Shown in pieces: positions 4,047 to 24,079 of a stretch of 32,000 nucleotides of DNA (position 1 is the stretch's first letter; the number at the start of each line of letters is the position of its first letter). Below the pieces are notes generated by a model. It saw only the letters and a list, made by a program, of their open reading frames with translations. It ran no database searches and was not told the DNA's origin. The position numbers and the translations under genes were made by a program. This DNA comes from Candidatus Blochmanniella floridana. Its GTDB lineage: Bacteria > Pseudomonadota > Gammaproteobacteria > Enterobacterales > Enterobacteriaceae. The stretch spans positions 660,001-692,000 of the forward strand of contig BX248583.1 in the NCBI GenBank assembly GCA_000043285.1, in the 5' to 3' direction.

Positions 4047-4100
4047 GAAACACAATTCAACAATGAATAATAAGACACAAACAATACTGATTTTACACAA

Positions 4101-5106: not shown

Positions 5107-6006
<900 letters not shown>

Positions 6007-6152
6007 TCATCCTTATTTATAATAATACAAATAAGTCATATTATAACATATATATGAATATGATCAGTATCATACTATTTCATAAAACCAAGTGCATTAA
6101 ATTCTAAAATATCACATCATCATGATAAATTATACAATAATAAAACAATCAT

Positions 6153-7310
6153 TTAAGATATTGATTGTAATGCTTGATCCAAATCATTAATTAAATCAAC
6201 ACTATCTTCTAAACCTACCGATACACGCAACAACATATTATTGATCCCAGCTGTATCGCGAGATTGCTTTGACATAGCAGCATGAGTCATAGTCTCTGGA
6301 TGTGCAATTAAACTCTCTACCCCCCCAAAAGATTCCGCTAAAGTAAACAACTTTAACGATTTTAAAAACTTTGATACGACACCCTCAGTTCCTTTTAATT
6401 CAAAACTAAATATTGATCCAAATCCAGTTTGCTGTTGACAAGCTATTTTATATCCAACATGACTATATAATCCCGGATAATATATAGACTTAATTTGAGG
6501 TTGTTTTAATAAAAAATCAACAATATTTTTAGTATTACACTGTTGTTGACAAACTCGAATCGATAATGTTCGAATGCCACGTAACAATTGATAACTATCA
6601 AAAGCACCTCCGGTAATTCCCAGTGCATTCGACCACCACATTAACTTTTCATGTAAATATATATCTTTAGAAATAACTGCTCCTAATATTACATCTGAAT
6701 GTCCATTTAAATACTTACTACAAGAATGTACTACTAAATCTGCTCCTAAATTTAAAGGATTCTGAAAAATTGGAGTCATAAAAGTATTATCTACAACATA
6801 AACAATATCATCTCTTTCCTTTAAACTACACATATACCGAATATCTACTACACGAAGCATAGGATTACTTGGAGTTTCAATAAAAACTAATTTAACATCT
6901 TTTTGTTTTAAACATTTCAACATAAGCTCAGTATCATTTTGATTAACGAACTGTACCCGACATACTTTTTTAGAATTTAATGCATTTAATAATCTATATG
7001 TACCTCCATAACAATCATACGGAGCTATTAGACAATCATCTGAATTTAGCAAAGCTATACATATTAAATAAATAGCTGACATACCACTACTTGTAATAAT
7101 TGCATTTTTCCCTTGTTCTAAATCTGCTACAGTTTTCTGAACTATATCGCGAGTAGGATTTTTTCGTCTTGAATAATCATAAAGCCTAGGTTTATTAAAC
7201 TCAAAAAAATTATAAGTTGTTGATAAAGTAATAGGAGATACAACACAACCATGTTGTTTATCATTATTTAAACCGCTTCTAACACTAACAGTTGACTTAT
7301 TATTTTTCAT
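6153..7310 (-). CDS. metB: cystathionine gamma-synthase (PLP-dependent)
   Basis: 385 aa ORF collinear with E. coli MetB (VRSGLN...YDYSRRKNPTRD...HSCSKYLNGHSDV...FTLAESFGGVESL). metL, which lies between metB and metF in E. coli, is absent. Confidence 0.93.
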   Translation of the reverse strand: MKNNKSTVSVRSGLNNDKQHGCVVSPITLSTTYNFFEFNKPRLYDYSRRKNPTRDIVQKTVADLEQGKNAIITSSGMSAIYLICIALLNSDDCLIAPYDCYGGTYRLLNALNSKKVCRVQFVNQNDTELMLKCLKQKDVKLVFIETPSNPMLRVVDIRYMCSLKERDDIVYVVDNTFMTPIFQNPLNLGADLVVHSCSKYLNGHSDVILGAVISKDIYLHEKLMWWSNALGITGGAFDSYQLLRGIRTLSIRVCQQQCNTKNIVDFLLKQPQIKSIYYPGLYSHVGYKIACQQQTGFGSIFSFELKGTEGVVSKFLKSLKLFTLAESFGGVESLIAHPETMTHAAMSKQSRDTAGINNMLLRVSVGLEDSVDLINDLDQALQSIS

Positions 7311-7463
7311 TATTTTAATATTTAATATAAACTATCAATAATCTTGTATAAATACATATAATAAATTTTTAACTAACTCAAATATTATATACTCACAAAT
7401 TCATATAATAATCTTAAAAATTAAATAAAAATACAAACTTTTATTTATTAATTTACATAACAT

Positions 7464-7525
7464 AAAATAACAAAAACCCTTTCATCTGATTTCATTAAAT
7501 CAGATGAAAGGGTTTTTGTTATTTT
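7464..7525. terminator. perfect 29-bp-stem / 4-nt-loop palindrome overlapping the rpmE 3' end; probable rpmE terminator
   Basis: 7464-7492 AAAATAACAAAAACCCTTTCATCTGATTT is the exact reverse complement of 7497-7525. The 3' arm on the rpmE strand is U-rich. Confidence 0.7.
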
Positions 7526-7721
7526 TATTAAAACGTTTATTGAATAAATTCACCCGACCTCTAGTATCAATAATACGTTGTGTTCCGGTATAAAAAGGAT
7601 GACAAGCATCACAAACATCTAAATTAATGTTATGTTTTAATGTAGATCTTACATGAATAACATTCCCACAAGAACAGGATGCAGATATAACATTATACTG
7701 CGGATGAATATTTTTCTTCAT
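7500..7721 (-). CDS. rpmE: 50S ribosomal protein L31
   Basis: [20 protein letters not shown]...CHPFYTG...RFNKRF matches L31. The last ~8 codons (KNNKNPFI) lie inside the palindrome arm. Confidence 0.95.
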
Positions 7722-8320
7722 TTTATTAAACTCTAAAAAAATTAATACACACTAACAATAACATAATTAAATATTCAAATACACCACTTTTAAAATTGAA
7801 CTAAGAACACAATCATCCTATAACACATATCAACTATGATTTCACTCATCAAATTCAATTATACTACTTTTATTTAAACATACGGTATATATTAATCTTT
7901 TAAAATTAAAATCAATTCAACTATCAATTTATCCATAATCACATTACTAAATAATTTTAACTTTATTCAATACATCATAAATCTTTAAATATATCTATGC
8001 AACACCTCATTTCTTAATTTCAAATAAATACACCCTAACAATCCACACTCAACCAAAAAAAAATTAACAAAACTTATTTTAAAATATACTTACTCTTTTA
8101 ATAAACTATTAACACTAATATTACATTATTAAATTATTAATATATTTATTTTTAGTATATACAATAAAGACCCTACAGTTATTGATTTATAATTAATAAC
8201 ACATTAAAATAAAAAACTTCAAAATATAATAATTTTTAATTAAAATAATATAAATATAAGTTCAATCAAACCTATATATAACAATCATTATAACATAATT
8301 TCATACAATCAATTAACAAT

Positions 8321-9070
8321 ATGTCTACATGGATTTTAGGAAAAGTTCTTAACATAAGACACTGGACTAATCAATTATTTAGCATTACTATCAATGCTAA
8401 AATTGATACATTTATTGCTGGCCAGTTCTCCAAAATAGGGATAAAAATCAATAACAAAATCATACAACGAGCATATTCTCATCTTAATGCTCCAAATAAT
8501 CCAAATCTAGAATTTTACATCACCAAAGTAACATCTGGTACTTTAACTAATTTATTACACACCTTACAAATTGGAGATACCATAATGATCTCTAAACAAT
8601 CTTATGGTCAATTTATATTAGATAAAATACCAAATCATTCTAATTATTTATGGATGATCGCTACAGGCACAGGAATAAGTCCATATTTATCTATACTCGA
8701 AAGTTTTGACAAAAGATTATACCTTTTTTTAAAAATTATATTAATTCACGCTACTCGATATTCTAAAAACCTAAATTACTTACCTAAAATGACAGAATTG
8801 CAAAAAGCATATAATGGAAAATTACTTATACAAACTATCTTAAGTCGAGAATACTCTTTTAACTCAATGTATGGATATATCCCAACGTTAATAGAAAACA
8901 ATACCTTAGAAAAAAAAATAGGACTATATTTAAACAATAACAGTTACGTAATGTTATGTGGAAACCCTCAAATGATAACCGATACAAAAAAAATACTAAA
9001 GAAAAAATATAATATGAAAAATCATTCCCATAAAAATACAGGAAATATTATTCAAGAACGATATTGGTAA
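8321..9070 (+). CDS. fpr: ferredoxin/flavodoxin-NADP+ reductase
   Basis: 249 aa ORF collinear with E. coli Fpr (RAYSxxN, LWMIATGTGISPYLSIL, MLCGNPQM, C-terminal ERYW). Confidence 0.93.
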   Translation: MSTWILGKVLNIRHWTNQLFSITINAKIDTFIAGQFSKIGIKINNKIIQRAYSHLNAPNNPNLEFYITKVTSGTLTNLLHTLQIGDTIMISKQSYGQFILDKIPNHSNYLWMIATGTGISPYLSILESFDKRLYLFLKIILIHATRYSKNLNYLPKMTELQKAYNGKLLIQTILSREYSFNSMYGYIPTLIENNTLEKKIGLYLNNNSYVMLCGNPQMITDTKKILKKKYNMKNHSHKNTGNIIQERYW

Positions 9071-9259
9071 CTCATATTTTTAATTCAATGACCACATATA
9101 TAAAATTAATCTAAATATAATATATAAATAATCTTAATAAATATCCATAACTTATTATAAAATATAACTCATACTTCCAATTTAATATAAATTAAACAAA
9201 CAATATGATACACTATTTAACATAAACTTACTTAATCTAATAAATCATAATAATATTAT

Positions 9260-10048
9260 ATGAAAAACCTATCCATAATTGCTAATTGGAAATTAAACGG
9301 AAACAAAAATACAATAACAAATTCATTAATAAATTTAACCACTCAATTAACTAACATACCCCAATATATTAAAATAGCTATAGCACCCCCAATATTATAC
9401 ATTGACATGGTTAAAAACCATTTAACATCATATAATAATAAAACAATCGAATTATGTTCTCAAAACGTTGACATACACTTATCTGGAGCGTTTACAGGAG
9501 ATATCTCAGCATCTATGTTAAAAGACTTATCTGTAAAATACGTATTAATAGGCCATTCTGAAAGAAGAATATATCATAAAGAAAATAACTCATTAATAGC
9601 CCAAAAATTCTCTATAATAAAACAAACAGAACTTATTCCTATTCTATGTATCGGAGAAAATAAAGAAGAACGAGATTCCGGGTCTACACAATCAATTTGT
9701 ATACAACAAATTGATTCAATTATCAAATTAGTCGGTATAAAAGCATTTGAAAATACAATTATTGCCTACGAACCCGTATGGGCTATTGGCAGCGGATCTA
9801 GCGCATCCCCACGTAACGTACAATCAATTCATCAATTTATTCGCAACTACATCGCTCAATATGATAAAACCATAGCTAACCAAATATCAATTCAATATGG
9901 AGGATCTATAACCACCGACAATGTTTTAGAATTCATTACTCAAAAAGATATCGATGGAGTACTAGTTGGCTCTGCATCTTTAGATATAAGAAATCTTATA
10001 AAAATAATAAATCTATCATCAAATTTAATCAAAAAAACATACCAATAA
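9260..10048 (+). CDS. tpiA: triosephosphate isomerase
   Basis: 262 aa ORF with TIM motifs (ANWKLNG, IGHSERR, AYEPVWAIGSG, QYGGS). Confidence 0.95.
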   Translation: MKNLSIIANWKLNGNKNTITNSLINLTTQLTNIPQYIKIAIAPPILYIDMVKNHLTSYNNKTIELCSQNVDIHLSGAFTGDISASMLKDLSVKYVLIGHSERRIYHKENNSLIAQKFSIIKQTELIPILCIGENKEERDSGSTQSICIQQIDSIIKLVGIKAFENTIIAYEPVWAIGSGSSASPRNVQSIHQFIRNYIAQYDKTIANQISIQYGGSITTDNVLEFITQKDIDGVLVGSASLDIRNLIKIINLSSNLIKKTYQ

Positions 10049-10113
10049 TACTTATTAACAACCAAACTCATTCCTAAAAAACAATAACTACAATATTATA
10101 ATAAATAAAACCA

Positions 10114-11076
10114 TTAACACAACTTTTTAGCCGTTGTTAATAGATCTTGCCGAAATGAACGACGCATATACTTTGTAGCATCATTAATATCATGATGAAC
10201 TAACTTTTCATTTTCTATACCAATACAATGTCTACCATAACCTTTTAACAACAACTCAATAGAATACGCCCCCATTCTAGATGCCAAAATCCTATCATAT
10301 GCAACTGGCTTTCCCCCACGTTGAATATGACCTAAAACAGTAGCCCGGGTTTCTTTTCCAGTTTCATTTTCAATATACTGAGCTAAATCAAAAACATTAC
10401 AAATACGCTCAGTTATAGCAACTATAGCATGTTTTTTTCCTTTAGAAATATTTAACTTAATTTTATCTACTAAATCTTGCATTTGAAACTTTAATTCTGG
10501 AATAATAACAAACTCACAACCACCTGCTATAGCGGCAGATATAGTTAAATCACCACAATAACGACCCATTACCTCTACAATAGAAATACGTTGATGAGAT
10601 GAAGAAGTATCTCTTAATCGATCAATTGCCTCAATAATAGTTTCCAATGCTGTAAAATAACCAATAGTATAATCTGTTCCAGCTACATCATTATCAATTG
10701 TACCCGGAATCCCAATACAAGGACAACCCAAATCACTTAACCGTCTTGCTCCTATATAAGATCCATCTCCTCCAATTATCACTAAAGCATCAAGATGACT
10801 CTTACTTATATTATTCATTACTACAGATCTAATCATATCTTTTTTTAATTCAGGAAAACGAGAAGATCCTAAAACTGTTCCACCTTTATTAATTATATCT
10901 GACACACTACAATAACTCAATAACATCATACGATTCTGAAACAACCCTAAATAACCATCATATATTCCATATACTTCTATTCCTTCAGATAAACCAGCCC
11001 GAACTACTCCTCGAATAGCCGCATTCATTCCTGGAGAATCACCACCACTTGTTAACACTCCTATTTTCTTTATCAT
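10114..11076 (-). CDS. pfkA: ATP-dependent 6-phosphofructokinase
   Basis: Collinear with E. coli PfkA from [23 protein letters not shown] onward. I prefer the ATG at 11074-11076 over the TTG-initiated track start at 11094. Confidence 0.94.
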
Positions 11077-11410
11077 ACACAAAAATAATTTCAATATTTA
11101 CATTTTCTAAAAAATTATAATACATAAACATCTTTTAAACATTTATTAACATTACATGACTAATAGGTATACCATTTTCAAAAAATCAAACACAACATAC
11201 ACAAACATATTGCTTATATCATACCATACACATTACTCCCTATTTTTAAAATATCAATAAATTTATTTAATATATTCACATATACTACTATTAACATATT
11301 CAATATTAACTATTTATACTATACATCAAAAAACACATATATCATTATCTTCTACTAATCACAATGTGTATAAAAATCTAATTAAATAACTAATTATTTA
11401 TTAATAATCA

Positions 11411-12145
11411 TTATTGTACTAATCTAGCAGGCCTTCCAACCACCGTTGAATAAGGCGGTACTGAGTGTACCACAATAGATCCAGCACCAATTTTTGATCC
11501 ACAACCTATTTCGATATTACCTAAAATAATAGATCCTGCCCCAATTAAAACCCCTTTTTTTATTTTTGGATGCCGATTACCATCTATTTTTCCAGTACTT
11601 CCTAACGTAACAGACTGCATAATAGATACATTATCATCTATGACAGCAGTTTCTCCAATTACCACTCCAGTCGCATGATCTAACATAATTCCACAACCAA
11701 TTTTAGCAGCAGGATGAATATCTACATTAAAAATAATAGAAATACGATTATATAAATACATAGCCAATCCTGGATAATTATGATTCCACAACCAGTTCGT
11801 AATACGATATGCTTGTAAGGCATGAAATCCTTTTAAATACAAAAAAGGAGTGAGATATTTTTGTACAGACGGATCACGTAAACGTATCGTACAAATATCT
11901 TGAGCTGCCGCATCAATAATATCATTAGTTCTATATATATCTTTCAATATATCAATTAAATCAATCGTCATCATATCTAAATTATTTAACTTTTTAAATA
12001 ACAAATAAACTAAAGCATCTTGAAAATTATCATGATTCAATAAAGTTACATTTAAAAATTTTTTTAATATAGGCTCTGAATCAATCAACAATCTTGCCTC
12101 AATTATCATATTATTCCAAACTATATCAACTTTATTCGAAGACAT
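11411..12145 (-). CDS. cysE: serine O-acetyltransferase, about 29 aa shorter at the C-terminus than E. coli CysE
   Basis: 244 aa ORF collinear with E. coli CysE (IVWNN..., DIHPAAKIGxGIMLDHATGVV, hexapeptide repeats). It ends at PARLVQ just after the left-handed beta-helix. Confidence 0.93.
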   Translation of the reverse strand: MSSNKVDIVWNNMIIEARLLIDSEPILKKFLNVTLLNHDNFQDALVYLLFKKLNNLDMMTIDLIDILKDIYRTNDIIDAAAQDICTIRLRDPSVQKYLTPFLYLKGFHALQAYRITNWLWNHNYPGLAMYLYNRISIIFNVDIHPAAKIGCGIMLDHATGVVIGETAVIDDNVSIMQSVTLGSTGKIDGNRHPKIKKGVLIGAGSIILGNIEIGCGSKIGAGSIVVHSVPPYSTVVGRPARLVQ

Positions 12146-12230
12146 ATAATTCCCTATGTTCTATGATATCAAAATCAAATAAATAACAAATTAACATTCA
12201 AAATAGTATTTATTAATTATTAATAATATT

Positions 12231-13232
12231 TTATAAAATATATGAACGCCTTATTAAAGAATACACTGCTTCATGAACATTTTTATTTTCATATAATATT
12301 TTATATATTTGTTCCGTAATAGGCATAATTACCTTATATTTTACAGATAACATATATACTTCTTTAGTATTACTTATTCCTTCTATTAATTGCCCAATAC
12401 TTTTCTGTGCATAATCTACATGCATTCCTTGCCCCAACAACATACCAAAACGACGATTACGAGATTGATCATCAGTACAAGTTAATACTAAATCTCCTAA
12501 TCCAGCTAAACCAACAAATACATCAACAGAAATCGCGCCAATTGATTTACCTAATCGAATCATCTCCGACAAGCCACGAGTAATTAAAGCAGCTCGTGCA
12601 TTTGCTCCAAATCCCATACCATCAGAAATACCTACTCCAATAGCAATAACATTCTTTACTGCTCCTGCTATTTGCACTCCTATAACATCAGTAGTTTTAT
12701 ATACTCGTAAATTCTTAACAGAATACAATAAATGTTCTATATCATATCGAAATTTTATATCAGCAGATGCTAATTCTATTGCTGCAGGTAACCCTATAGC
12801 AAGCTCATGAGCAAAAGTTGGACCAGATATTACTGCACAAGGCACCTCCTTACCCAAAACATCATACACTACATCCTGCAATAACCAACCAGTTTTCGGC
12901 TCTAATCCCTTAGATGCAATAATAATACGAAAATTATTTTTTAAATTCAATCGTAATTTCAATAACACACAACGAAACACATGACTCGGTACAGCAATCA
13001 AAATATTTTGAGAAAAATCAGCAGCCACCGATAAAGATTCTTCCACATATAATGAATCAGGAAAAAAAACACCTGGTAAATCTACTTGATTAGATCGATC
13101 AATTTTAAGAATTTTTATATGTTGAGAATTATGACCCCATAATAAAACCATATTACCATGCTTCGCTATAGCAACAGCTATAGCTGTACCATATACCCCT
13201 GCTCCAATAACAGTAACACTAAATTTTTCCAT
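12231..13232 (-). CDS. gpsA: NAD(P)H-dependent glycerol-3-phosphate dehydrogenase
   Basis: 333 aa ORF with GAGVYGTA Rossmann motif and GpsA core (GPTFAHE, GAVKNVIAIG, RNRRFG). Adjacent to cysE as in E. coli. Confidence 0.94.
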   Translation of the reverse strand: MEKFSVTVIGAGVYGTAIAVAIAKHGNMVLLWGHNSQHIKILKIDRSNQVDLPGVFFPDSLYVEESLSVAADFSQNILIAVPSHVFRCVLLKLRLNLKNNFRIIIASKGLEPKTGWLLQDVVYDVLGKEVPCAVISGPTFAHELAIGLPAAIELASADIKFRYDIEHLLYSVKNLRVYKTTDVIGVQIAGAVKNVIAIGVGISDGMGFGANARAALITRGLSEMIRLGKSIGAISVDVFVGLAGLGDLVLTCTDDQSRNRRFGMLLGQGMHVDYAQKSIGQLIEGISNTKEVYMLSVKYKVIMPITEQIYKILYENKNVHEAVYSLIRRSYIL

Positions 13233-13674
13233 AACATCATAAATACATACAAAAATTTACTGTAATTTAACAACAATACATACAAACCTAATTAACTCAC
13301 TCTAAACATTTAATAAAACCATCTCATTCATTAAATCTCAAAATACTACTATCTAATTTTTAAACAGACAAAAACACAAAATTAACTCATCTTATTCAAC
13401 CAATACCATTCTTCCTATCACACTCTAACAACAATAAAATACCTAAATATACAACATATACACTTAACAAAACTACTATATTTATTACTTACATCTATAC
13501 CAATAGATACACATAACTAAATTCAATCATAAAAACAAAAATATCCTATACTATAATAATTATATTACCAAATACAAATTTTAAAATATAAATTTAATTT
13601 AAATTTCATATTCAACATTATACTAATATATTACCAAACCAAACATGTCGTAATCATTAAAAATAAAACCAACT

Positions 13675-13941
13675 TTATTTCAATAATTGTTCTAAATCCT
13701 TCCGATTCCTACCTAATTTTAATAAATCATCTGACCCTCCAACATGATTATTATTAATAAAAACCTGAGGAACTGTAACACACCCCTTTGATCTATTATA
13801 CATTTCCAAATATGCAGGATCCGATTTATCATCACTTAAAACAATTTCTTTAAATATTAAAGATTGTTCTACTAAAAAAAACTTAGCCCTATCACAATAA
13901 GGACAATTCTTTTTTGTATAAATAACAATATCATATGACAT
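13675..13941 (-). CDS. grxC: glutaredoxin 3
   Basis: 88 aa ORF with CPYC active site and TVPQVFI motif. Synteny with gpsA and yibN. Confidence 0.9.
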   Translation of the reverse strand: MSYDIVIYTKKNCPYCDRAKFFLVEQSLIFKEIVLSDDKSDPAYLEMYNRSKGCVTVPQVFINNNHVGGSDDLLKLGRNRKDLEQLLK

Positions 13942-13968
13942 AATAAAACCCTCACCTCATTACTAAAC

Positions 13969-14412
13969 CTATTTTTTCAAATTCAATAAAGGAAATCCAC
14001 CATCTACCCAAGAAGAAATACCCCCTTCTAATACATATACTTGCGTAAATCCTAATCTATTTAGATCTTTTTTAACTGAATACAAAAATCTGTCACTCGA
14101 ATTATACACAAGAATCAACGGATTATTCTTCAACCGACTACCCAAAATAAAATCATTCTCCTTTATATCTTTAATAGATATATTAATACTATTAACAATA
14201 TATCCAGAATAATACTCTTCCGAATTACGCATATCAACCACTACAGCACCTTTTTTATTTATTAAAAAAACTGCTTTCTCACACGAAATTTTAAATCCAC
14301 TATACATCCAATTCATATAAAAAATATACAATATTATAACTAACAAAAAACACCATACTAACATTAACACTAAATGGTTTTTACAAAACAACAACATTTC
14401 TTGAAAAAACAT
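13969..14412 (-). CDS. yibN: membrane-anchored rhodanese-domain protein
   Basis: 147 aa ORF with an N-terminal hydrophobic helix plus a rhodanese fold. Position next to grxC as in E. coli. Confidence 0.8.
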   Translation of the reverse strand: MFFQEMLLFCKNHLVLMLVWCFLLVIILYIFYMNWMYSGFKISCEKAVFLINKKGAVVVDMRNSEEYYSGYIVNSINISIKDIKENDFILGSRLKNNPLILVYNSSDRFLYSVKKDLNRLGFTQVYVLEGGISSWVDGGFPLLNLKK

Positions 14413-14679
14413 AATTACACCAAATATATTAACATAATATTATAATTATAATTTCTATAACTAAAACAATCTTCTTTACATTTTATCTAATACTTCACTG
14501 TTACAATATCATTTTAACTAAACAATAATTTTATTTTAACAAATAAAATTATAATATACTTACATATACATAAATTTTATGATAATTAATCAATACCAAA
14601 ACATTTTTAAACCAAAAAGTAACTTTTACATCCAAACAACAAAAAATTTAACAACAAACATAACTAATTAAAATAATAA

Positions 14680-14710
14680 TTGACAAAAACTTTTAATCCA
14701 GTAATACTAT
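14680..14710 (+). promoter_or_regulatory. possible sigma70 promoter for hldD-waaF-waaC (TTGACA at 14680-14685, weak -10 candidates at 14702-14710)
   Basis: A perfect -35 hexamer is rare in this G-poor stretch. The -10 match is weak (TAATAC or TACTAT). If used, the transcript would begin just upstream of the 72-nt palindrome. Confidence 0.25.
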
Positions 14711-14732
14711 ATCTATTATTATAATGGTGTTG

Positions 14733-14804
14733 ATTTATAGTGTAACAATACTCAACACCCGTGACTCCTTAGTCACGGGTGTTGAGTATTGTTACACTAT
14801 AAAT
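14733..14804. repeat. perfect 34-bp-arm palindrome (4-nt centre CCTT) with GC-rich core
   Basis: 14733-14766 ATTTATAGTGTAACAATACTCAACACCCGTGACT is the exact reverse complement of 14771-14804. It lies between divergent genes, 33 nt upstream of the hldD ATG, and has no flanking U-run. Confidence 0.95.
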
Positions 14805-14837
14805 AAATATAGATATATTAAATATATTATTTAGTTT

Positions 14838-15773
14838 ATGATTATAGTTACCGGAGGGGCAGGTTTTATTGGAAGAAATCTTATTAGAAGATTGAACAAA
14901 ATTCAAAGGACAGATATCTTGGTTGTTGATAATTTACGAAATGGAAAAAAATATAAAAATTTAGTAGGATTGCATATTTCTGATTACATAGATAAGCACT
15001 GTTTTATAAAAAGATTATTAAATAATTCTAATTATTTAAAAAATATAGAAGTAATATTTCATGAAGGAGCTTGTTCGAACACTTATGAATGGAATGGAAG
15101 ATATTTAATGAATAACAATTATCAATATTCTAAATCATTACTTAATTATTCTGTTGAAAATTCGATTCCTTTTATATATGCATCTTCTGCTTCTGTTTAC
15201 GGAAAAAATATTTATTCTTCTAATACATTTGATAATAATGAAAACCCTTTGAATATTTACGGTTATTCTAAATTTTTATTTGATCAATATGTTCGAAGTG
15301 TTTTAACAAAAGTTTCTTCTCAAGTTTGTGGATTGCGGTACTTTAATGTTTATGGACCTTATGAAAATCATAAAGGGGCTATGGCAAGTATTATTTTTAA
15401 TATATATCAAAAAATCATACATAGAAAAATCCCTGTTTTATTTATTGGTAGTAGAGATTTTAAACGAGATTTTATATATATAGATGATGTTGTAAATATT
15501 AATATATGGATGTGGGTTAATAAAATATCTGGTATTTTTGATTGTGGAACTGGTGTTTCTGAATCTTTTACATTACTCGCTGATATTGTGTTAAAATTTT
15601 TGAATTATGATTCAATTCAATATGTTCCTATGCCTTATAAAATAAGACAACATTATCAAACATTTACAAAAGCAAATATTTCTTATTTAAGAAATATAGG
15701 ATATGATTTTTCTTTTATTAAATTAAGTGAAGGTATTCATCGATATTTAAATTGGTTAATTCATAATAATTAA
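14838..15773 (+). CDS. hldD: ADP-L-glycero-D-manno-heptose 6-epimerase
   Basis: 311 aa ORF starting MIIVTGGAGFIGRNL (NAD Rossmann), with the YGYSK catalytic motif. Collinear with E. coli HldD/RfaD and followed by waaF-waaC. Confidence 0.94.
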   Translation: MIIVTGGAGFIGRNLIRRLNKIQRTDILVVDNLRNGKKYKNLVGLHISDYIDKHCFIKRLLNNSNYLKNIEVIFHEGACSNTYEWNGRYLMNNNYQYSKSLLNYSVENSIPFIYASSASVYGKNIYSSNTFDNNENPLNIYGYSKFLFDQYVRSVLTKVSSQVCGLRYFNVYGPYENHKGAMASIIFNIYQKIIHRKIPVLFIGSRDFKRDFIYIDDVVNINIWMWVNKISGIFDCGTGVSESFTLLADIVLKFLNYDSIQYVPMPYKIRQHYQTFTKANISYLRNIGYDFSFIKLSEGIHRYLNWLIHNN

Positions 15774-15816
15774 TCATTTAAATTATTATAATAATATAAA
15801 TTTATTAGAATAGTTC

Positions 15817-16872
15817 ATGAAGATTTTAGTAGTTAGTCCATCATGGATTGGAGATACGGTTATTTCACATAGTCTATATCGTTTGTTGTTTAAGAAATAT
15901 CAATCTCAAGTTAAAATAGATGTTATCACATCTATACGATGTGAACCTATAATTAAACGAATGATTGAAATAAACAAAATATTCTATGTTCCATATAAAC
16001 ATAGAGTATTAAATTTAACTCAATGTTATAAATTAGCTAATTTATTGAGAACAGAAAACTATACTCAAGCTATAATACTACCTAACTCATTAAAATCTGC
16101 TTTAGTACCATTTTTAGCTAAAATTCCTGTTCGAACTGGTTGGAGAGGAGAAATGAGATATGGTTTTATTAATGATTTGCGCATCTTAAATAAATCATTT
16201 TTTCCTGCAATAATTCATAGATATTCTGCACTTGCCTATAACAAGCATTCTATTCAAAATTTTTCTGATTTACCTTCTCCATTACCATTACCTCAATTAT
16301 GTATACAAAAAGAAGAAATATTAAACGTATCGATTAAATTTAATTTACATACAAAAAAAAAAATTATAGGTTTATGCCCTGGATCATCAAAGGGACTATT
16401 TAGAAATTGGCCTCATTATCATTTTGTTAATTTAGCTATCCGGTTAATATATTATGGATATCATATAGTAATTTTAGGTTCAAATGAGAATTATTTATTA
16501 ATTAATGATTTTATTGAAAAGAGTAAATTAAAAAAATTAGTTCAATATTATGATAATTTACTTGGATGTACTTCTTTAGATGAAGCTGTTTTAATTATAG
16601 CCCTATGTTCTGCTATAGTTAGCAATGATTCTGGATTAATGCATGTAGCGTGTGCATTACATAAACCAGTGGTAGGTTTATATGGAATCACAGATTCCTG
16701 TTGTACTCCCCCTTTATTTTATAAAAGTAAGATAATTCAAGGTAATGCTTTTAAGAATAAAATAATGTTTTCAAGAATGAAAATTAAAAAAAGTTTATAT
16801 AATTATCATAGTAGTTTAATTAATATTAGTGTTAACCAAGTATTTGAAGTATTGAAAGAGTTATTACGTTAA
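15817..16872 (+). CDS. waaF: LPS heptosyltransferase II
   Basis: 351 aa ORF starting MKILVVSPSWIGDTV..., collinear with E. coli WaaF. Operon position as expected. Confidence 0.92.
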   Translation: MKILVVSPSWIGDTVISHSLYRLLFKKYQSQVKIDVITSIRCEPIIKRMIEINKIFYVPYKHRVLNLTQCYKLANLLRTENYTQAIILPNSLKSALVPFLAKIPVRTGWRGEMRYGFINDLRILNKSFFPAIIHRYSALAYNKHSIQNFSDLPSPLPLPQLCIQKEEILNVSIKFNLHTKKKIIGLCPGSSKGLFRNWPHYHFVNLAIRLIYYGYHIVILGSNENYLLINDFIEKSKLKKLVQYYDNLLGCTSLDEAVLIIALCSAIVSNDSGLMHVACALHKPVVGLYGITDSCCTPPLFYKSKIIQGNAFKNKIMFSRMKIKKSLYNYHSSLINISVNQVFEVLKELLR

Positions 16873-16892
16873 TTTTGGAAAAATAAGATTAT

Positions 16893-17873
16893 ATGAATGT
16901 GTTAATTATAAAAATTTCTTCTATGGGGGATATAATCCATACTTTACCTGCAATAACAGATGCATCTAATTCTATACCTAATATAATGTTTGATTGGGTT
17001 ATTGAAGAGACTTTTTCTGCCATTCCAAGATGGCATCCATCTGTACAACAGATTATTCCGATAAAATTAAGAACTTGGAAAAATAATTGGTATTCATTAG
17101 ATTCTTGGAAAGAATATAGGTCTTTTATAAAAAAAATAGTAAAAAAAGAATATGATGTAATCATTGATGCTCAGGGTTTATTGAAAACAGCTATATTTGT
17201 AACTAGGGTAGCTAAAGGGATTAAACATGGTTTGGATTCTGTTAGTGCTACAGAGCTGATGAGTTGTTGGTTTTATGATCATTGTCATTTTGTAAAAAAA
17301 AATCAACATGCAATTGAACGTATTCGAAATTTATTTGCAATATGTTTACAATATTCAGTACCATTAAGTATAGGAAAATATAATATTAAGAATTTTTTTA
17401 ATTATTATAAAAATCAACATAATATCGTGCCTTATATAATATTTTTTTGTGTTACTACTTGTTCTAAAAAACAGTGGCCTAAATTATATTGGTATAATAT
17501 AATTCAAAAAGCATTGAATTTAGGTTATCATATAAAAATTCCATTTTGGACTGTAAGTGAAGAGCTATTTGTAAAAAAGATTAAAAAACATTTTAATCAA
17601 GTAATAATATTATCACGTTTAACTTTACAAGAGATTGCAATACAGATTTTAAAATCTACAGCAATTATATCTGTTGATACTGGATTAAGTCATTTAGCAG
17701 CAGCTTTTGATTGTCCTAATTTAACATTATATGGTCCAACTGATCCTAAACTTGTAGGAACATATGGTGGTCGTAATCAATTAATTTTAAAATCTAAATC
17801 TAATGATATGAGGCATCTTACTCCGGATTTTGTTTGGAGTACGTTTGAAAAAAATTTCGATATTTTAAAATAA
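16893..17873 (+). CDS. waaC: LPS heptosyltransferase I
   Basis: 326 aa ORF starting MNVLIIKISSMGDIIHTLPAITDA..., which matches the E. coli WaaC N-terminus. Confidence 0.92.
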   Translation: MNVLIIKISSMGDIIHTLPAITDASNSIPNIMFDWVIEETFSAIPRWHPSVQQIIPIKLRTWKNNWYSLDSWKEYRSFIKKIVKKEYDVIIDAQGLLKTAIFVTRVAKGIKHGLDSVSATELMSCWFYDHCHFVKKNQHAIERIRNLFAICLQYSVPLSIGKYNIKNFFNYYKNQHNIVPYIIFFCVTTCSKKQWPKLYWYNIIQKALNLGYHIKIPFWTVSEELFVKKIKKHFNQVIILSRLTLQEIAIQILKSTAIISVDTGLSHLAAAFDCPNLTLYGPTDPKLVGTYGGRNQLILKSKSNDMRHLTPDFVWSTFEKNFDILK

Positions 17874-18163
17874 ATTATTATTTTTTAAAATACTTGGTAA
17901 TTAAAGTAATTAATTTGTTTATAAAAATTCGATATTTATTACATAATGTTTTATACATGATAAAATTCCTGATTTTTTATTGTGTTTTTTAAAATTTGTA
18001 ATGTATTATTGAATAAATAAATAATGAGTATTTATACATGATTGTATTTTATTTAATATAATTGATGCACATGCAAAATTAATTATAAAAATCATTTTAA
18101 CATTAAACGAATATTTTTTATAGATATTTTATAAATATGTTTAAATTCAGTTTATTGATGTCA

Positions 18164-18181
18164 ATATATATATATATATAT
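18164..18181. repeat. (AT)9 dinucleotide microsatellite ending in the waaA start codon
   Basis: ATATATATATATATATAT followed by G. The last AT plus G forms the ATG at 18180-18182. Confidence 0.9.
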
Positions 18182-19472
18182 GTTTATATTATATATGTTT
18201 GTATATAATATTATTATATACAGTATTCAACCTATCATATGGATTAGATTATTGTGGCGTAGTAGATTTGTACCGACGTATCGTCAGAATTTAGGGGAAC
18301 GTTATGGTTTTTACTGTCATAAAAATATTAAACTTAATAGTATAATAATACATGCTGTTTCAGTTGGAGAAACTTTATCAGTAATACCGTTGATCTATAA
18401 ATTGCGAAAAAAGTATCCAGATGTTATCATTACACTCACTTCTATGACTCCTGCTGGTTTAGAAATGGCTTATAAGTTATCAGCATATTATCATCATGTA
18501 CAATGCATGTATCTTCCTTATGATTTATTTTTTTCTGTAAAACGATTTTTAAATTATATACAACCTAAATTAGTTATTATTATGGAAACAGAATTGTGGC
18601 CAAACTTAATCAATGAATTATATAAACGTCGAATTCCTGTAATTATTGCAAATGCTCGTTTATCAAATATCTCTTTTAAAAAATATAAAATATTTAATCG
18701 ATTTTTTTATTATATTATGCAACGTATAAATACCGTAGCTGTTCAAAGTAAAGAAGATGCATTTCGGTTTTTTAGTTTAGGATTTAAAAAAAATCGATTA
18801 AATATTGTGGGTAATTTAAAATTTGATGTTAGTTCTAACAAAATTAATCTAAAAAAAATTTTATCTTTTGAAAAAATTAAAATTGAAGGCCGTTTGGTTT
18901 GGATAGCTAGTAGTACTCATAAGGGAGAAGAAATAATATTATTAACAGTGTATAAACGACTTTTAAAATCTTTTTCTAATTTACTCTTAATTCTTGTACC
19001 TCGTCATTCTGAACGTTTTAGTGATGTGATTAATATTACTAAACATGCAGGATTTTCTTATGTTGTGAGAAGTAGTGGTGTTATACCTACTAAAGATATA
19101 CAGGTGTTTATTGTGGATACTATAGGAGAATTAATGTTTTTATATGAAATTTCAGATGTAGCATTTATTGGAGGAAGTTTAGTTCGACATGGAGGACATA
19201 ATCCATTAGAAGCCGCTGAGTATTCAATTCCTTTAATTATGGGTCCATATATTTTCAATTTTAGGGATATTTGTAATAAGATGTATAGTTTAAATGGTTT
19301 AATTAAAATTACTGATACGAAATCTCTAATTCATATTATGCATATGTTGTTAAAAAGTAAAGATCGTCGTTTGTATTATGGTGGTTGTGCTTTTAATGTA
19401 TTTAAGAAAAATCGAGGAGCTTCATATAAAATATTAAATATTATAAGTCACTATTTGGTAAAAAATTCTTGA
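18180..19472 (+). CDS. waaA: 3-deoxy-D-manno-octulosonic acid (Kdo) transferase
   Basis: 430 aa ORF collinear with E. coli WaaA (IQPIIWIRL...GERYGFY...SVGE...HGGHNPLEAA). An alternative start at the Met 5 codons downstream is possible. Confidence 0.93.
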   Translation: MFILYMFVYNIIIYSIQPIIWIRLLWRSRFVPTYRQNLGERYGFYCHKNIKLNSIIIHAVSVGETLSVIPLIYKLRKKYPDVIITLTSMTPAGLEMAYKLSAYYHHVQCMYLPYDLFFSVKRFLNYIQPKLVIIMETELWPNLINELYKRRIPVIIANARLSNISFKKYKIFNRFFYYIMQRINTVAVQSKEDAFRFFSLGFKKNRLNIVGNLKFDVSSNKINLKKILSFEKIKIEGRLVWIASSTHKGEEIILLTVYKRLLKSFSNLLLILVPRHSERFSDVINITKHAGFSYVVRSSGVIPTKDIQVFIVDTIGELMFLYEISDVAFIGGSLVRHGGHNPLEAAEYSIPLIMGPYIFNFRDICNKMYSLNGLIKITDTKSLIHIMHMLLKSKDRRLYYGGCAFNVFKKNRGASYKILNIISHYLVKNS

Positions 19473-19530
19473 ATATTATTTCATTGATTTAATTTTTAAA
19501 TCAATGAAATAATATTCAAGAATTTTTTAC
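19458..19530. terminator. perfect 35-bp-stem / 3-nt-loop palindrome between convergent waaA and rpmG; probable bidirectional terminator
   Basis: 19458-19492 is the exact reverse complement of 19496-19530. It contains the waaA stop (19470-19472) and the rpmG stop (19527-19529), and is followed by T7 on the + strand. Confidence 0.75.
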
Positions 19531-19688
19531 TTTTTTTCTGTATATGTAATATGTTTTTTAATAATAGGATCAAACTTTTTTAATTTTATTTTCTCTGGAT
19601 GAGATCGTTTATTTTTTGTGGTAGTATAAAAATGTCCATTACCAGTAGAAGAAAATAAATAAATTATTTCTCGAGTTTCTTTAGCCAT
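19527..19688 (-). CDS. rpmG: 50S ribosomal protein L33
   Basis: Not in the ORF track (53 aa). Manual translation gives [53 protein letters not shown], which matches L33. Directly downstream of rpmB. Confidence 0.93.
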
Positions 19689-19696
19689 GATTATTC

Positions 19697-19936
19697 CTAA
19701 TAATTTTTTTTATTTTTGAAAGATACGATTGATAAAAATTGTTCAATACCTAATTTATCAACTAATCGTATACCTTTTGTAGAAATACGTAATTTAATAA
19801 ATTTTTTTTTATTTTCTATCCAAAATCGATGAGAATGTATATTTGGTATAAACCATCGTTTTGTTGCATTCATAGCATGTGATCTTTTATTTCCATTCAT
19901 TGGTTTTTTTCTTGTAATTTGGCATGTGCGAGACAT
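19697..19936 (-). CDS. rpmB: 50S ribosomal protein L28
   Basis: [39 protein letters not shown]... is collinear with E. coli L28. Confidence 0.95.
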
Positions 19937-20446
19937 ATTATGTCCTTTTGTTATTAATGTGATTTAATTAAATTAAATACATAAAATTATAAGTTATTTA
20001 TCATACATAATATATGAAATTTATTATTATAAAATTAAGATTATAATAAATTAAAGTTCGTTTTATTTATATAAATTAAAATTATTTGTATTTAATACTG
20101 TATTTGATTATAATAAAAAACTAAGTAATTATTGTATATAAATTAGTAATAGCATTAGTTAAAAATAGAAATAATAAATTTATAATAATTTAATTTTTCG
20201 GTACAATAGTATTAAATAAAATAATTTTTAAAAAATTAAAATAATAATATTAATATAATTATGTAATTTTTATATTTTAGTAGAAATTAAAGAAACTGGT
20301 TTAAAATATAAATTTTAATAGTTTTTAAAAATTGTGTTATTAGTTATAGTGTTTTTTTGATAAAAATAGATAAATTATAATTTCATTAAATTATTTAAAG
20401 TTTAAAGTTTTATCGAAATTAACAACAATTGAATTTTTCATGTATT

Positions 20447-20902
20447 ATGAAAATAATTAATATTAAAATTATTAGAAATAATATTAATAATTTTTCTTTG
20501 CCTCAACATATTACTCCTGGTTCTGCAGGGTTAGATTTATTAGCATGCATTGAAAAACCAGTATCTATTCTACCTAAAGAAACTCGATTAATTCCTACAG
20601 GTATTGCTATATATATTGAAGATATAGAAGTGGCTGGTATTATTTTACCTCGTTCTGGGTTAGGACATTATTATGGTATTGTATTAGGAAATACAATAGG
20701 ACTTATTGATTCTGATTATCAAGGAGAAATAATGATTTCTTTGTGGAATCGGGGATCAAATAAATTTATTCTTTATCCAGGTAAAAGAATAGCTCAATTA
20801 TTATTTATATCAATTTTACGAGTTAAACTTTCTCTAGTAAAGTCTTTTGACCCATTTATGAAAACAATTCGTGGAGTGAAAGGATTTGGTCATTCTATGT
20901 AA
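20447..20902 (+). CDS. dut: dUTP diphosphatase
   Basis: MKIINIKII...GSAGLDL...PRSGLG...GLIDSDYQGE motifs. I prefer the ATG at 20447 over the TTG-initiated track start at 20429, based on alignment with the E. coli Dut N-terminus. Confidence 0.93.
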   Translation: MKIINIKIIRNNINNFSLPQHITPGSAGLDLLACIEKPVSILPKETRLIPTGIAIYIEDIEVAGIILPRSGLGHYYGIVLGNTIGLIDSDYQGEIMISLWNRGSNKFILYPGKRIAQLLFISILRVKLSLVKSFDPFMKTIRGVKGFGHSM

Positions 20903-21102
20903 TTTGGGTACTTAATATCATGTACTTTGATAGTAGTTTAATTATTCTTTTATATTTACTATTATGGTTATAATTGATAAATTATTTTATGGTAATAATA
21001 AATTTGTATATCCAAAATTAGTTTGAGTATATTTAACACAAATTATTTGGATTTTATAGTTAAATAAAAATGTATAAGAATAAATATAGATAAATTGAAA
21101 TT

Positions 21103-21975
21103 ATGATTAATAGTATGACTGCTTTTTCTAGATATGAAGTTGTTTATTTATGGGGAAGTGCAGTGTGGGAAATTCGTTCTATGAATCAACGATATTTAGA
21201 TATTTGTATTACTATACCTAAGAATGTCAATGATTTGTTTTGGATAATTAGAAAAAAAGTTAAGAGTTCTCTTACAAGAGGTAAAATAGAATGTCATTTA
21301 CAACTTAATATTAATGTAGATAGTATTAATACTGTTGTGTTTGATAATAAATTATTTTCTTTTTTACTTGATAAAATCAAATATATTAAATCACAAATTA
21401 ATGAAGGGGAAATTGATCTTGTAGAAATTTTATCTTTTCCAGGAATAATTTCATATAAGCATAATAATGATGTATATCAAATAAATAATGAATTATTAGC
21501 TGCTTTTGAACTAACATTATATCAATTAATACGTAATAGAGAAAAGGAAGGTAGTTTTTTAAAGGATAATGTAGTTAATCGGTTATTACAAATTACTACA
21601 GTAATCGATGAAATTCAGAAATATATTCCTCAAATATTACAACAAAAGCGTAAAAAACTTTTGGATTATATTCAGGGTTTTTGTATTAATTTTGATACTA
21701 GTCGATTAGAACAAGAATTATTGTTAATGACACAAAAAATTGATGTTTCAGAAGAAATAGATCGTTTGAAAATTCATGTTGAATCTATGCAAAATCTTTT
21801 ATCTCAAAAAATAAATAAACCTGTTGGAAGACAGTTAGATTTTATTACTCAAGAATTACAAAGGGAGGCTAATACTTTGTCGTCGAAATTAATAGATGCT
21901 TATGTGACAGGTTTGGTTATTTCTTTAAAGATATTAATTGAGCAAATTCGTGAACAGGTTCAAAATATTGAGTAA
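21103..21975 (+). CDS. yicC: YicC-family stress-induced protein (endoribonuclease family)
   Basis: 290 aa ORF collinear with E. coli YicC (MINSMTAF..., EEIDRLKIHV, GRQLDFITQELQREANTLSSK, C-terminal IREQVQNIE). Confidence 0.9.
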   Translation: MINSMTAFSRYEVVYLWGSAVWEIRSMNQRYLDICITIPKNVNDLFWIIRKKVKSSLTRGKIECHLQLNINVDSINTVVFDNKLFSFLLDKIKYIKSQINEGEIDLVEILSFPGIISYKHNNDVYQINNELLAAFELTLYQLIRNREKEGSFLKDNVVNRLLQITTVIDEIQKYIPQILQQKRKKLLDYIQGFCINFDTSRLEQELLLMTQKIDVSEEIDRLKIHVESMQNLLSQKINKPVGRQLDFITQELQREANTLSSKLIDAYVTGLVISLKILIEQIREQVQNIE

Positions 21976-22047
21976 TGAATAATAATTATTGTTAATTATG
22001 TTTCTTTGATAATGGTGTAATTGAGTATAAATTATTTTATTAAAGAT

Positions 22048-22109
22048 TATTTTTAAAATTTATTTATATTTATTTTTATAAAAATAAATATAAATAAATT
22101 TTAAAAATA
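22048..22109. repeat. 62-nt perfect, loop-less, pure A/T palindrome
   Basis: 22048-22078 TATTTTTAAAATTTATTTATATTTATTTTTA is the exact reverse complement of 22079-22109. Confidence 0.9.
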
Positions 22110-22159
22110 TAACAAAAATAAGTTTTTTTGTATAAAAAAACTTATTTTTGTTATTTTTT
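22109..22159 (+). terminator. intrinsic terminator downstream of yicC: perfect 21-bp stem, GTAT loop, T5 run
   Basis: 22109-22129 ATAACAAAAATAAGTTTTTTT is the reverse complement of 22134-22154. Followed by TTTTT. An A-run upstream makes it potentially bidirectional. Confidence 0.75.
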
Positions 22160-22522
22160 ACTAAAAATAATCAAAAAAATATTATAAAACATAAAAAAAT
22201 ATCTCAAAATGACTTTATTTGACTGATTTCTTTTTTCAATCTTAGAATATTTCAAATTATTTAAAACTTAGATAGAATAAAATTGTTAATAATCTATATG
22301 TATATATTATTAATTTGTAACATCCTAATTTAGGAGGATAAAATTATAACAATTTTTTTTAAAATAATTTAGTTCTATTTTAGATACAAAGTTGCTTAAG
22401 GCTATTAGTTACATAACATTACATTAATTAAATTATTAGTTTAAATAAATAACACCGTAATTGTATTGTAATAAAAATAGTATTTTATAATTGTTGTTGA
22501 TTTAATGTAGAGATATATAATT

Positions 22523-22957
22523 ATGAACAGATTAACAGATATTGCAAATATGGTAGAATCTTTGTCTCGGATTTATCATCGTCTTCGTAAAGAAATTAAT
22601 GGTCAGTTAATTAATGAAGGCCTATCTATGTCTAAAATGAAAATTTTACATCTTATAACTACTGGTAAAACCAGTGCAACAGATATTAAAAATTATATGG
22701 GATTTTCATCAAGGACAGTAGTTACTGTACTTGATGCGTTGGAAAAAGATGAAATGTTACGTCGACAACAAAGTCTTACAGATCGTCGTGTAAAGTATGT
22801 ACATATCACAAAAAAAGGACAGGAGAAATTGATTATAGCTAAATGTACATATAATATTATTTTAGATCGTATATTTGCTCCTTTATCTGATGTACAATTA
22901 AAGAATTTTTATGAAGTATGTAATTTATTGGAAATCCAACAAAAAATAGCACAATGA
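22523..22957 (+). CDS. MarR-family winged-helix transcriptional regulator
   Basis: 144 aa. Family pattern visible: HTH region (SATDIKNYMGFSSRTVVTVLDALEKDEMLRR) followed by a wing (LTDRRVKYVHITKKGQEKL). Composition matches the neighbouring genes. No E. coli counterpart at this syntenic position. Confidence 0.75.
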   Translation: MNRLTDIANMVESLSRIYHRLRKEINGQLINEGLSMSKMKILHLITTGKTSATDIKNYMGFSSRTVVTVLDALEKDEMLRRQQSLTDRRVKYVHITKKGQEKLIIAKCTYNIILDRIFAPLSDVQLKNFYEVCNLLEIQQKIAQ

Positions 22958-23073
22958 TATTTAGATATATTATAAGTAGATCATATAAAATGAATAAATA
23001 TAACAATACTATATATGATATACTATAAAATATATAATAATTTATTATTCAATAATTGGATTGTAAGTACTAT

Positions 23074-23125
23074 TAAATACAAACTACTAACTATCCATAT
23101 ATGGATAGTTAGTAGTTTGTATTTA
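23074..23125. repeat. 52-nt perfect loop-less palindrome between the MarR-family gene and gmk
   Basis: 23074-23099 TAAATACAAACTACTAACTATCCATA is the exact reverse complement of 23100-23125. No U-run follows. Confidence 0.9.
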
Positions 23126-23157
23126 CGTAATATGTAAACGATAGATAATATTTGATA

Positions 23158-23790
23158 ATGAAAAAGTATTCTGGATTATTAGGTATAATATCTGCTCCTA
23201 GTGGAGCAGGGAAGTCTACTTTAATAAATGCTTTACAAAAAAATGATTCAATTTTACAAATAAAATTATCGATTTCTTATACTACTCGTAAAAAGAGACC
23301 TGGAGAAGTACATGGAAAAGATTATTATTTTATTTCTATAGAAGAATTTCAAAATATGATTAATCAGAATATGTTTTTAGAATATGCAAAGGTTTTTAAT
23401 CATTATTATGGCACTGAAAAAAATAGTATTAAATTAATGCTGAATTCTGGAGTACATGTAATTTTAAATATAGATTGGCAAGGAATGAATCAAATTCGTA
23501 ATAAAAAATTGGATTTTTATACTATCTTTATTTTACCACCATCTCAAAAAGAATTAGAAAAAAGATTAAGATTTAGAGGATTAGATACTGATCAAGTTAT
23601 TTTTGATAGAATGAAACAGGCAATGAATGAAATTAGTCATTGTAAAGAATATGATTATATTATTATAAATGATGATTTTAATATTGCATTAATATATTTA
23701 CAGTCTGTAATTTTATCTAAACAATTAAAAATTGATTATCAGGAATATCATAATAGTAATTTGATTAATAATTTGTTATCATGTCTATAA
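23158..23790 (+). CDS. gmk: guanylate kinase
   Basis: MKKYSGLLGIISAPSGAGKSTLI P-loop, YTTRKKRPGEVHGKDYYF, collinear with E. coli Gmk. I prefer the ATG at 23158 over the TTG at 23152. Confidence 0.93.
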   Translation: MKKYSGLLGIISAPSGAGKSTLINALQKNDSILQIKLSISYTTRKKRPGEVHGKDYYFISIEEFQNMINQNMFLEYAKVFNHYYGTEKNSIKLMLNSGVHVILNIDWQGMNQIRNKKLDFYTIFILPPSQKELEKRLRFRGLDTDQVIFDRMKQAMNEISHCKEYDYIIINDDFNIALIYLQSVILSKQLKIDYQEYHNSNLINNLLSCL

Positions 23791-23826
23791 TGAATAGTTA
23801 TAGTTTTATGTATGTAAAATAATAAA

Positions 23827-24009: not shown

Positions 24010-24079
24010 TTAATATGTTTAATAATTATATAGTATTAAATACGATATAATATGTATATAAAGGTAATGTTTGGTATTT

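Follow-up and report, generated by a model that had tools for sequence, protein, structure and literature searches.

How a bacterium without dnaA starts to replicate its chromosome, and where, is a question that the yibN-hldD intergenic region of Blochmannia floridanus raises. dnaA is reported to be absent from the Camponotus-associated Blochmannia, and their mode of initiation has been posed as a question in the literature. In most Blochmannia, the skew shift is reported to lie at mnmG. In B. floridanus and B. vafer, a genome-wide GC-skew shift has been located in the intergenic sequence between yibN and hldD (Williams & Wernegreen, BMC Genomics 2010, PMC3017870; Genome Biol Evol 2012, PMC3268670). 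Its distance is given as approximately 31.5 kb upstream of mnmG (PMC3268670), or as approximately 32 kb upstream of gidA, which is where B. pennsylvanicus has its origin (PMC3017870). A relocation of the origin before the split of B. floridanus and B. vafer was proposed in the later of the two papers (PMC3268670). The original prediction that we followed up had been made from the letters of the DNA, and it named the same spacer as a candidate non-canonical replication origin. Our own analysis covered a window of 32 kb (the whole stretch of B. floridanus DNA analyzed, positions 1 to 32000), and what is said here of skew along the whole chromosome, including that there is no second switch at mnmG, is taken from the published plots.

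The features of the window to which the text refers are as follows, with positions counted from the first base of the window.

1 to 14412, no strand assigned: left flank, in which the + strand is C-rich and A-rich and the - strand is the putative leading strand
13969 to 14412, - strand: yibN, which borders the spacer on the left, is transcribed away from it and encodes a rhodanese-domain protein
14413 to 14837, no strand assigned: yibN-hldD intergenic spacer, 425 bp, 19% G+C, which holds the skew switch
14690 to 14781, no strand assigned: G/C change point, given as the 2-lnL support interval of 92 bp, with a best estimate of 14776
14733 to 14804, no strand assigned: perfect palindrome, with arms of 34 nt and a loop of 4 nt (CCTT), centered at 14768/14769, with an imperfect extension over 14716 to 14821
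14838 to 15773, + strand: hldD, which borders the spacer on the right, is transcribed away from it and encodes ADP-glyceromanno-heptose 6-epimerase
14838 to 32000, no strand assigned: right flank, in which the + strand is G-rich and is the putative leading strand

Read from the left end of the window to the spacer, the genes are ilvE(-), ilvG(-), the tRNA-Trp/Asp/Ala genes(-), metF(-), metB(-), rpmE(-), fpr(+), tpiA(+), pfkA(-), cysE(-), gpsA(-), grxC(-) and yibN(-). Beyond the spacer, the order is hldD(+), waaF(+), waaC(+), waaA(+), rpmG(-), rpmB(-), dut(+), yicC(+), a MarR-family gene(+), gmk(+), glnA(+), polA(-), ubiD(-) and ubiB(-), the last of which is cut by the end of the window. The gene names used in the original prediction were confirmed, and the orthologues of yibN in related lineages gave rhodanese matches in Pfam. 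HldD matches its B. floridanus counterpart over the full length with 100% identity, and 100% identity to B. floridanus proteins was also found for IlvE and for the UbiB fragment.

The GC skew of the + strand, calculated in 1-kb bins, lay between -0.23 and -0.61 over positions 1 to 14500. Over positions 14501 to 32000, it was mostly between +0.02 and +0.36, and the single exception was a value of -0.08 at 25001 to 26000. The minimum of the cumulative G-C count was found at 14776, and the same base was returned as the maximum-likelihood two-segment change point. The support interval around this base occupies the 3' quarter of the spacer, 57 to 148 bp upstream of the hldD ATG. The ratio of G to C was 1313:2828 to the left of the switch and 2406:1760 to the right (chi-square 569, p = 1e-125), and the A:T polarity also reverses at the switch (chi-square 122, p = 2.5e-28). 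The flip in strand polarity that had been claimed for this spacer was thus borne out. The hand counts on which the claim was based proved to be exact, both on the left (C 25 and G 2 at 9071 to 9259; C 44 and G 5 at 14413 to 14720) and on the right (G 26 and C 15 at 17874 to 18179; G 41 and C 18 at 28469 to 28800).

It had also been claimed that the bias tracks position and not the direction of transcription, and this held for genes of both strands and for noncoding DNA. On the left flank, the + strand GC3 skew was -0.80 for the - strand genes and -0.56 for the two + strand genes (fpr and tpiA). On the right flank, it was +0.56 for the + strand genes and +0.21 for the - strand genes (rpmG, rpmB, polA, ubiD and ubiB). 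The intergenic segments had, without exception, negative skew on the left and positive skew on the right, where they were followed over 17 kb. The direction of the change, from C-rich to G-rich along the + strand, has the polarity of an origin, as had been proposed, and the majority of genes diverge from the switch: 14 of the 16 left-side genes are on the - strand and 9 of the 14 right-side genes are on the + strand.

The replication-linked bias, expressed as the share of G/C third positions that conform to the bias of their side, was significantly weaker on the right than on the left, both for leading-strand genes (0.78 versus 0.90, p = 3e-6) and for lagging-strand genes (0.61 versus 0.78, p = 0.002). 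The right flank is part of the approximately 31.5-kb segment, from the new switch to mnmG, that changed polarity, and the relocation has been tied to accelerated gene loss and indels in this segment (PMC3268670). Incomplete re-equilibration of the segment is a possible explanation of its weak bias, but it seems unlikely at silent sites because B. floridanus and B. vafer are so diverged. Alternatively, some initiation further to the right may be the cause. A milder form of the same weakening of the right flank was seen in B. vafer.

We next describe the spacer itself. No DnaA box was found in 14413 to 14837, whether sought as TTWTNCACA or as TTATCCACA with up to one mismatch, in line with the absence noted in the original prediction. 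Over the whole window, the 6 matches to TTWTNCACA and the 16 matches to TTATCCACA correspond to the shuffle expectation (6.5 and 14.1, respectively). Likewise, the literature reports no match to TTATCCACA, even with one mismatch, near either origin position, and no cluster of DnaA boxes (PMC3268670). GATC does not occur between 14067 and 15282, and hence there is none in the spacer. The switch is flanked by yibN and hldD, and mnmG does not lie within the 32-kb window.

The original prediction stated further that gene order and orientation across the switch match those of Escherichia coli. The orientations do: yibN and hldD have the same orientations in E. coli K-12. The adjacency does not, as the two genes are separated there by 8,971 bp and seven genes (gpmM, envC, yibQ, waaH, tdh, kbl and htrL). 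Since these seven intervening genes are gone, the Blochmannia spacer is a deletion scar and not the E. coli junction.

The spacer is 81% A+T, and its best 100-bp window reaches 89% A+T, which places it in the top 2.3% of all windows. The A+T maximum of the 32-kb window (97%) is near 22026, outside the spacer, so ease of melting alone does not single the spacer out. Pairs of promoter-like hexamers were present on each strand of the spacer, in modest excess, with 11 found compared with 6.8 (standard deviation, 2.8) in shuffles. The small open reading frames in the spacer are at most 45 amino acids long and of low complexity, and none was supported. Searching Rfam at the gathering score returned only the three tRNAs in the whole window and no family in the spacer. 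A relaxed Rfam search of the spacer gave only long-hairpin models far below threshold, mostly microRNA precursors together with a few small-RNA families.

In order to place the switch in an evolutionary setting, orthologous loci were collected from homologues of HldD. These came from B. vafer (L002), B. chromaiodes (L003), B. ocreatus (L004) and Blochmannia sp. SNP (L010), and four further loci (L005 to L008) are from Logan lineages assembled from public sequencing runs; with B. floridanus, nine lineages are represented. The gene order in all loci is ...fpr-tpiA-pfkA-cysE-gpsA-(secB)-grxC-yibN / hldD-waaF/waaC-waaA.... The only other lineage with the flip is B. vafer, in which the skew was -0.33 over the 9 kb to the left and +0.24 over the 9 kb to the right, with the change point at 9277 to 9367 of L002, inside a spacer of 1,072 bp. 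The step in skew at the spacer was +0.56 in B. floridanus and +0.575 in B. vafer, versus +0.06 to +0.2 in the seven other loci, where it is attributable to the change in gene orientation.

A neighbor-joining tree built from a concatenation of seven proteins (1,852 ungapped columns) placed B. floridanus and B. vafer as sisters with 97% bootstrap support. The nearest relatives of the pair in this tree, SRR32934490 and SRR32934591, are both without the flip. Because the sisters share the flip while their nearest relatives lack it, the flip is a derived state that arose in the floridanus-vafer ancestor. The divergence between the two species is saturated, and their spacers differ 2.5-fold in length. 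The nine spacers fail to align (32% mean column identity), and the k-mers common to the floridanus and vafer spacers were at or below the shuffle expectation, with no shared motif.

These data allow the possible causes of the switch to be weighed. The flip might be nothing but a transcriptional or coding-strand bias at the point where - strand and + strand operons meet, given that most genes switch strand at the spacer and that the collinear relatives all have a small positive step there. However, the genes on the minority strand follow the bias of their side, fpr and tpiA being negative and polA, ubiD, ubiB, rpmB and rpmG positive, and the step in B. floridanus and B. vafer is 3 to 9 times larger than in the seven relatives with the same gene orientations, which rules out a purely transcriptional cause. 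Bias from transcription only is refuted by GC3, by the intergenic analysis and by the comparators, and it is almost certainly not the explanation. A replication terminus also gives a change in the sign of the skew, but the change seen here runs from C-rich to G-rich along the + strand between diverging genes, and both of these are signatures of an origin. Moreover, on a chromosome of 706 kb, the site is approximately 31.5 kb away from mnmG and not opposite it, so that a terminus at this position is extremely improbable. The true origin could instead still lie beside mnmG, the flip having come about through rearrangement or through recent strand switching of the block from hldD to mnmG. In favor of this, mnmG is the canonical neighbor of the gammaproteobacterial origin, most Blochmannia have their reported shift there, and the skew of the right flank is weaker than that of the left. 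Yet gene order and orientation are identical in nine Blochmannia lineages of differing skew, the orientation being that of E. coli; GC3 and all intergenic segments give a positive skew along 17 kb of the right flank, even under - strand genes; and the flip is common to two species of saturated divergence. A local rearrangement breakpoint is ruled out because the gene order is the same with and without the flip, and the comparison of orthologous spacers that had been suggested with the original prediction, made here with seven flip-less lineages, thereby contradicts such a breakpoint. The published genome-wide plots also place the shift at the spacer and not at mnmG (PMC3017870, PMC3268670). 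An origin retained at mnmG is largely refuted, and we consider it very unlikely.

Within the spacer, the long palindrome invites an explanation of its own, namely that it is itself the origin, and that its cruciform or hairpin nucleates unwinding or directs priming in the manner of hairpin-type single-strand initiation signals. Its center falls within the support interval (92 bp) around the change point, and as single-stranded DNA it is predicted to fold very stably (-42.6 kcal/mol, z = -13.3 versus shuffles). Most of the other palindromes in the window are found at gene 3' ends (examples are the one where waaA and rpmG converge and those closely downstream of rpmE, yicC and ubiD), whereas this one follows no gene end: it is flanked by the starts of two genes and separated by 33 nt from the hldD ATG. 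Against this, long palindromes that are perfect or nearly so, and unrelated in sequence, occur seven times in the 32-kb window, matching the 20 large palindromes reported for the B. floridanus genome, and a rough estimate from the count of seven gives a probability of about 13%, i.e., of the order of 0.1, for a chance overlap with an intergenic interval of 92 bp. By symmetry, any palindrome matches the local polarity 50% of the time. B. vafer has the same switch but has no comparable palindrome anywhere in its spacer, and none was found in the seven other Blochmannia spacers. A conserved origin element was therefore rejected as an interpretation of the palindrome, since B. vafer lacks it and six others occur in the window. 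Its position on the change point is probably coincidental, and that it acts as the origin in B. floridanus is improbable.

Taken together, the composition of the DNA (its polarity, its dependence on position, the divergence of the genes and the lack of DnaA boxes) supports the reading of this locus as a candidate origin, a reading that has already been published. The yibN-hldD spacer very probably marks the site at which replication starts, and the long-term direction of replication changes there within approximately 100 bp. Skew reports the average direction of replication over the long term and not initiation itself. We found no report of a marker-frequency analysis or of a physical mapping of initiation for B. 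floridanus in the literature.

The fuller explanation that we favor combines an effective origin or narrow initiation zone, which we hold to be likely, with an ancestral relocation and, more tentatively, with firing that is set by context. The spacer would be the point from which forks diverge in a bacterium that is reported to have no dnaA. The comparison of lineages suggests that the origin moved here from an ancestral position near mnmG before B. floridanus and B. vafer separated, in agreement with Williams & Wernegreen. The site would be specified by its context, an AT-rich gap between divergently transcribed blocks of genes, and not by a specific binding sequence, because the switch has been kept in the same intergenic region while the spacers are unalignable, have no motif in common and differ 2.5-fold in length. 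How such a context might act can be suggested only tentatively. According to the twin-domain model of supercoiling, divergent transcription without topoisomerase I should lead to strong negative supercoiling in such a gap. In a cell that is reported to lack topA, divergent transcription may accordingly hold the gap under negative supercoiling, so that it opens or forms R-loops readily, and the replicative helicase could then be loaded without DnaA and without PriA-dependent restart, either directly onto the opened DNA or with help from the host. We regard this mechanism, based on transcription and supercoiling, as rather unlikely to be correct. B. floridanus is reported to lack topA, recA, priA, dnaT, fis and mutH (PMC2671203).

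The polarity of the locus also varies among the lineages without the flip. On the hldD-sense strand, two of the Logan lineages are C-rich on both sides of the spacer, as expected with an origin to the right. B. ocreatus, Blochmannia sp. SNP and SRR32934261 are G-rich on both sides over approximately 20 kb. SRR32934492 is G-rich on both sides over at least 35 kb, and its left part extends to 25 kb from hldD and includes 16 genes of both orientations; a search for a switch leftward in this lineage, to -25 kb, revealed none. In B. chromaiodes, the skew is near zero on both sides. SRR32934490 was considered as an intermediate state, and this was dropped, as its step is within the gene-orientation range of all the relatives. 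If the G-rich lineages are collinear with B. floridanus, their switch is neither at the spacer nor at mnmG; the alternative is an inversion of the block. Since at least three states of polarity are represented among the nine lineages at this one collinear locus, it is conceivable, if somewhat doubtful, that the start site in dnaA-less Blochmannia is tied to no conserved sequence and has moved more than once. The weaker bias of the right flank in B. floridanus may, on this view, stem from residual initiation further to the right. Were this true, Blochmannia would offer a series of relocated origins made by nature, and a tractable one for asking what specifies an origin without DnaA. We found no paper on variation in polarity across lineages at the yibN-hldD locus, and we consider this variation to be a lead worth following.

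The closest known system is the relocated origin of Williams & Wernegreen, with which our case shares the organism, the intergenic region, the type of evidence and the interpretation; nothing essential differs. The finding of an origin between yibN and hldD is an independent rediscovery, in the same genome, of the 2010/2012 result; it is already known, and as stated it adds no new fact. What is added to the earlier work is a change point at the nucleotide level, the decomposition of the bias into GC3 and intergenic components, seven collinear control lineages, the finding that no sequence is common to the floridanus and vafer spacers, and a palindrome on the change point that is specific to B. 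floridanus. Handles on initiation after the loss of DnaA are few, and a relocated and sharp skew switch is among them.

With E. coli oriC (mioC-oriC-mnmG), the B. floridanus spacer shares a skew change of origin polarity, an AT-rich intergenic site and flanking genes that diverge. Unlike oriC, it has no cluster of DnaA boxes and no GATC, it is not beside mnmG, and it is found in a genome from which dnaA is reported to be absent, so that opening of an unwinding element driven by DnaA cannot apply. A second point of comparison is stable DNA replication in E. coli (oriK), which is primed by R-loops in rnhA or topA mutants and which likewise initiates free of DnaA and without DnaA boxes. oriK is favored by transcriptional R-loops and negative supercoiling, and the reported lack of topA in B. 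floridanus is a parallel. However, the oriK pathway requires RecA and PriA, and the E. coli route cannot operate in B. floridanus because both are reported to be absent (PMC2671203). In addition, oriK activity is dispersed, with broad peaks, whereas the switch in B. floridanus is sharp, and its width of less than 100 bp implies one dominant site of initiation. Finally, some cyanobacteria, whose chromosome replication is dnaA-independent (Ohbayashi et al. 2020, PMC7198777), resemble B. floridanus in replicating without dependence on DnaA and oriC. Such cyanobacteria reportedly tend to lose a clear GC skew and to start replication at multiple or irregular sites. B. floridanus, in contrast, has a skew that is among the strongest and sharpest known, which points to a fixed start point for its replication.

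The yibN|hldD spacer, in which the strand polarity of the GC skew switches, contains a long palindrome whose center coincides with the skew change point.

14733-14804: perfect palindrome with 34-nt arms and a 4-nt loop
14716-14821: imperfect extension of this palindrome

The start of hldD lies 33 nt downstream of the palindrome at 14733-14804, and divergent gene starts are found on both sides. No counterpart was observed in the orthologous spacers of B. vafer and seven other Blochmannia lineages. As far as we could find, a palindrome sitting on this switch is apparently previously undescribed.

The replication-associated GC3 bias was significantly weaker on the right flank (14838-32000), which is the segment with switched polarity, than on the left flank (1-14412), both for leading-strand genes (0.78 versus 0.90) and for lagging-strand genes (0.61 versus 0.78). 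The weakest GC3 skews were those of the two genes closest to the switch, hldD (+0.24) and waaF (+0.22). On the same flank, the ribosomal protein genes rpmG and rpmB (19527-19936), together with polA, ubiD, and ubiB (25637-32000), are oriented head-on to forks from the yibN|hldD spacer, and forks from mnmG would run codirectionally with all five. Their orientation is consistent with a relic and fits the proposed relocation of the origin.

At the B. chromaiodes locus (CP003903.1, 741624-762586), GC skew was approximately zero to the left and right of the spacer, with values of -0.03 and +0.01 in intergenic DNA and 0.00 to +0.16 at GC3, even though mnmG is only about 30 to 50 kb away. The origin of B. 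pennsylvanicus, a close relative of B. chromaiodes, has been placed at mnmG in the literature. A different state was found at the collinear loci of B. ocreatus, B. sp. SNP, and the sequencing-run lineages SRR32934261 and SRR32934492, where the hldD-sense strand is G-rich on both sides of the spacer. This was seen at GC3 and intergenic sites and in both gene orientations, and in SRR32934492 it extends to 25 kb left of hldD. With an origin at mnmG, to the right, the reverse polarity would be expected. The G-rich state suggests that these four lineages have either an origin at a third position or an inverted block.

Six further long palindromes, perfect or near perfect and with 25- to 35-nt arms, were found in the window.

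7464-7525: long palindrome
19458-19530: long palindrome
22048-22109: long palindrome
22104-22159: long palindrome
23074-23125: long palindrome
29121-29172: long palindrome

Their sequences are unrelated, and all six are intergenic. Because the majority are placed at gene 3' ends (for example, in the convergent waaA/rpmG gap, across the rpmE stop, and directly after yicC and ubiD), they may act as terminators. An 8-kb stretch in or beside the polarity-changed segment holds three palindromes whose arms measure 30 nt or more. Scaled from the 20 palindromes published for the B. floridanus genome, the expectation is about 0.9 per 32 kb.

The 442-bp gap between gpsA and grxC (13233-13674) lies at the position of secB in relatives. 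secB is present between these genes in B. chromaiodes, B. ocreatus, B. sp. SNP, and three lineages from public sequencing runs (Logan), and at this locus, the position checked, it is also absent from B. vafer and SRR32934490. The surrounding cysE-to-gmk block corresponds to E. coli 3.78 to 3.82 Mb and has the following borders.

11095-11410: pfkA|cysE border
Approximately 23791-24070: gmk|glnA border

On the E. coli map, the blocks that flank it in Blochmannia (pfkA-tpiA-fpr...metF and glnA-polA-ubiD-ubiB, both inverted) are located across oriC from it. If these map positions are right, local synteny with E. coli is confined to the cysE-to-gmk block.
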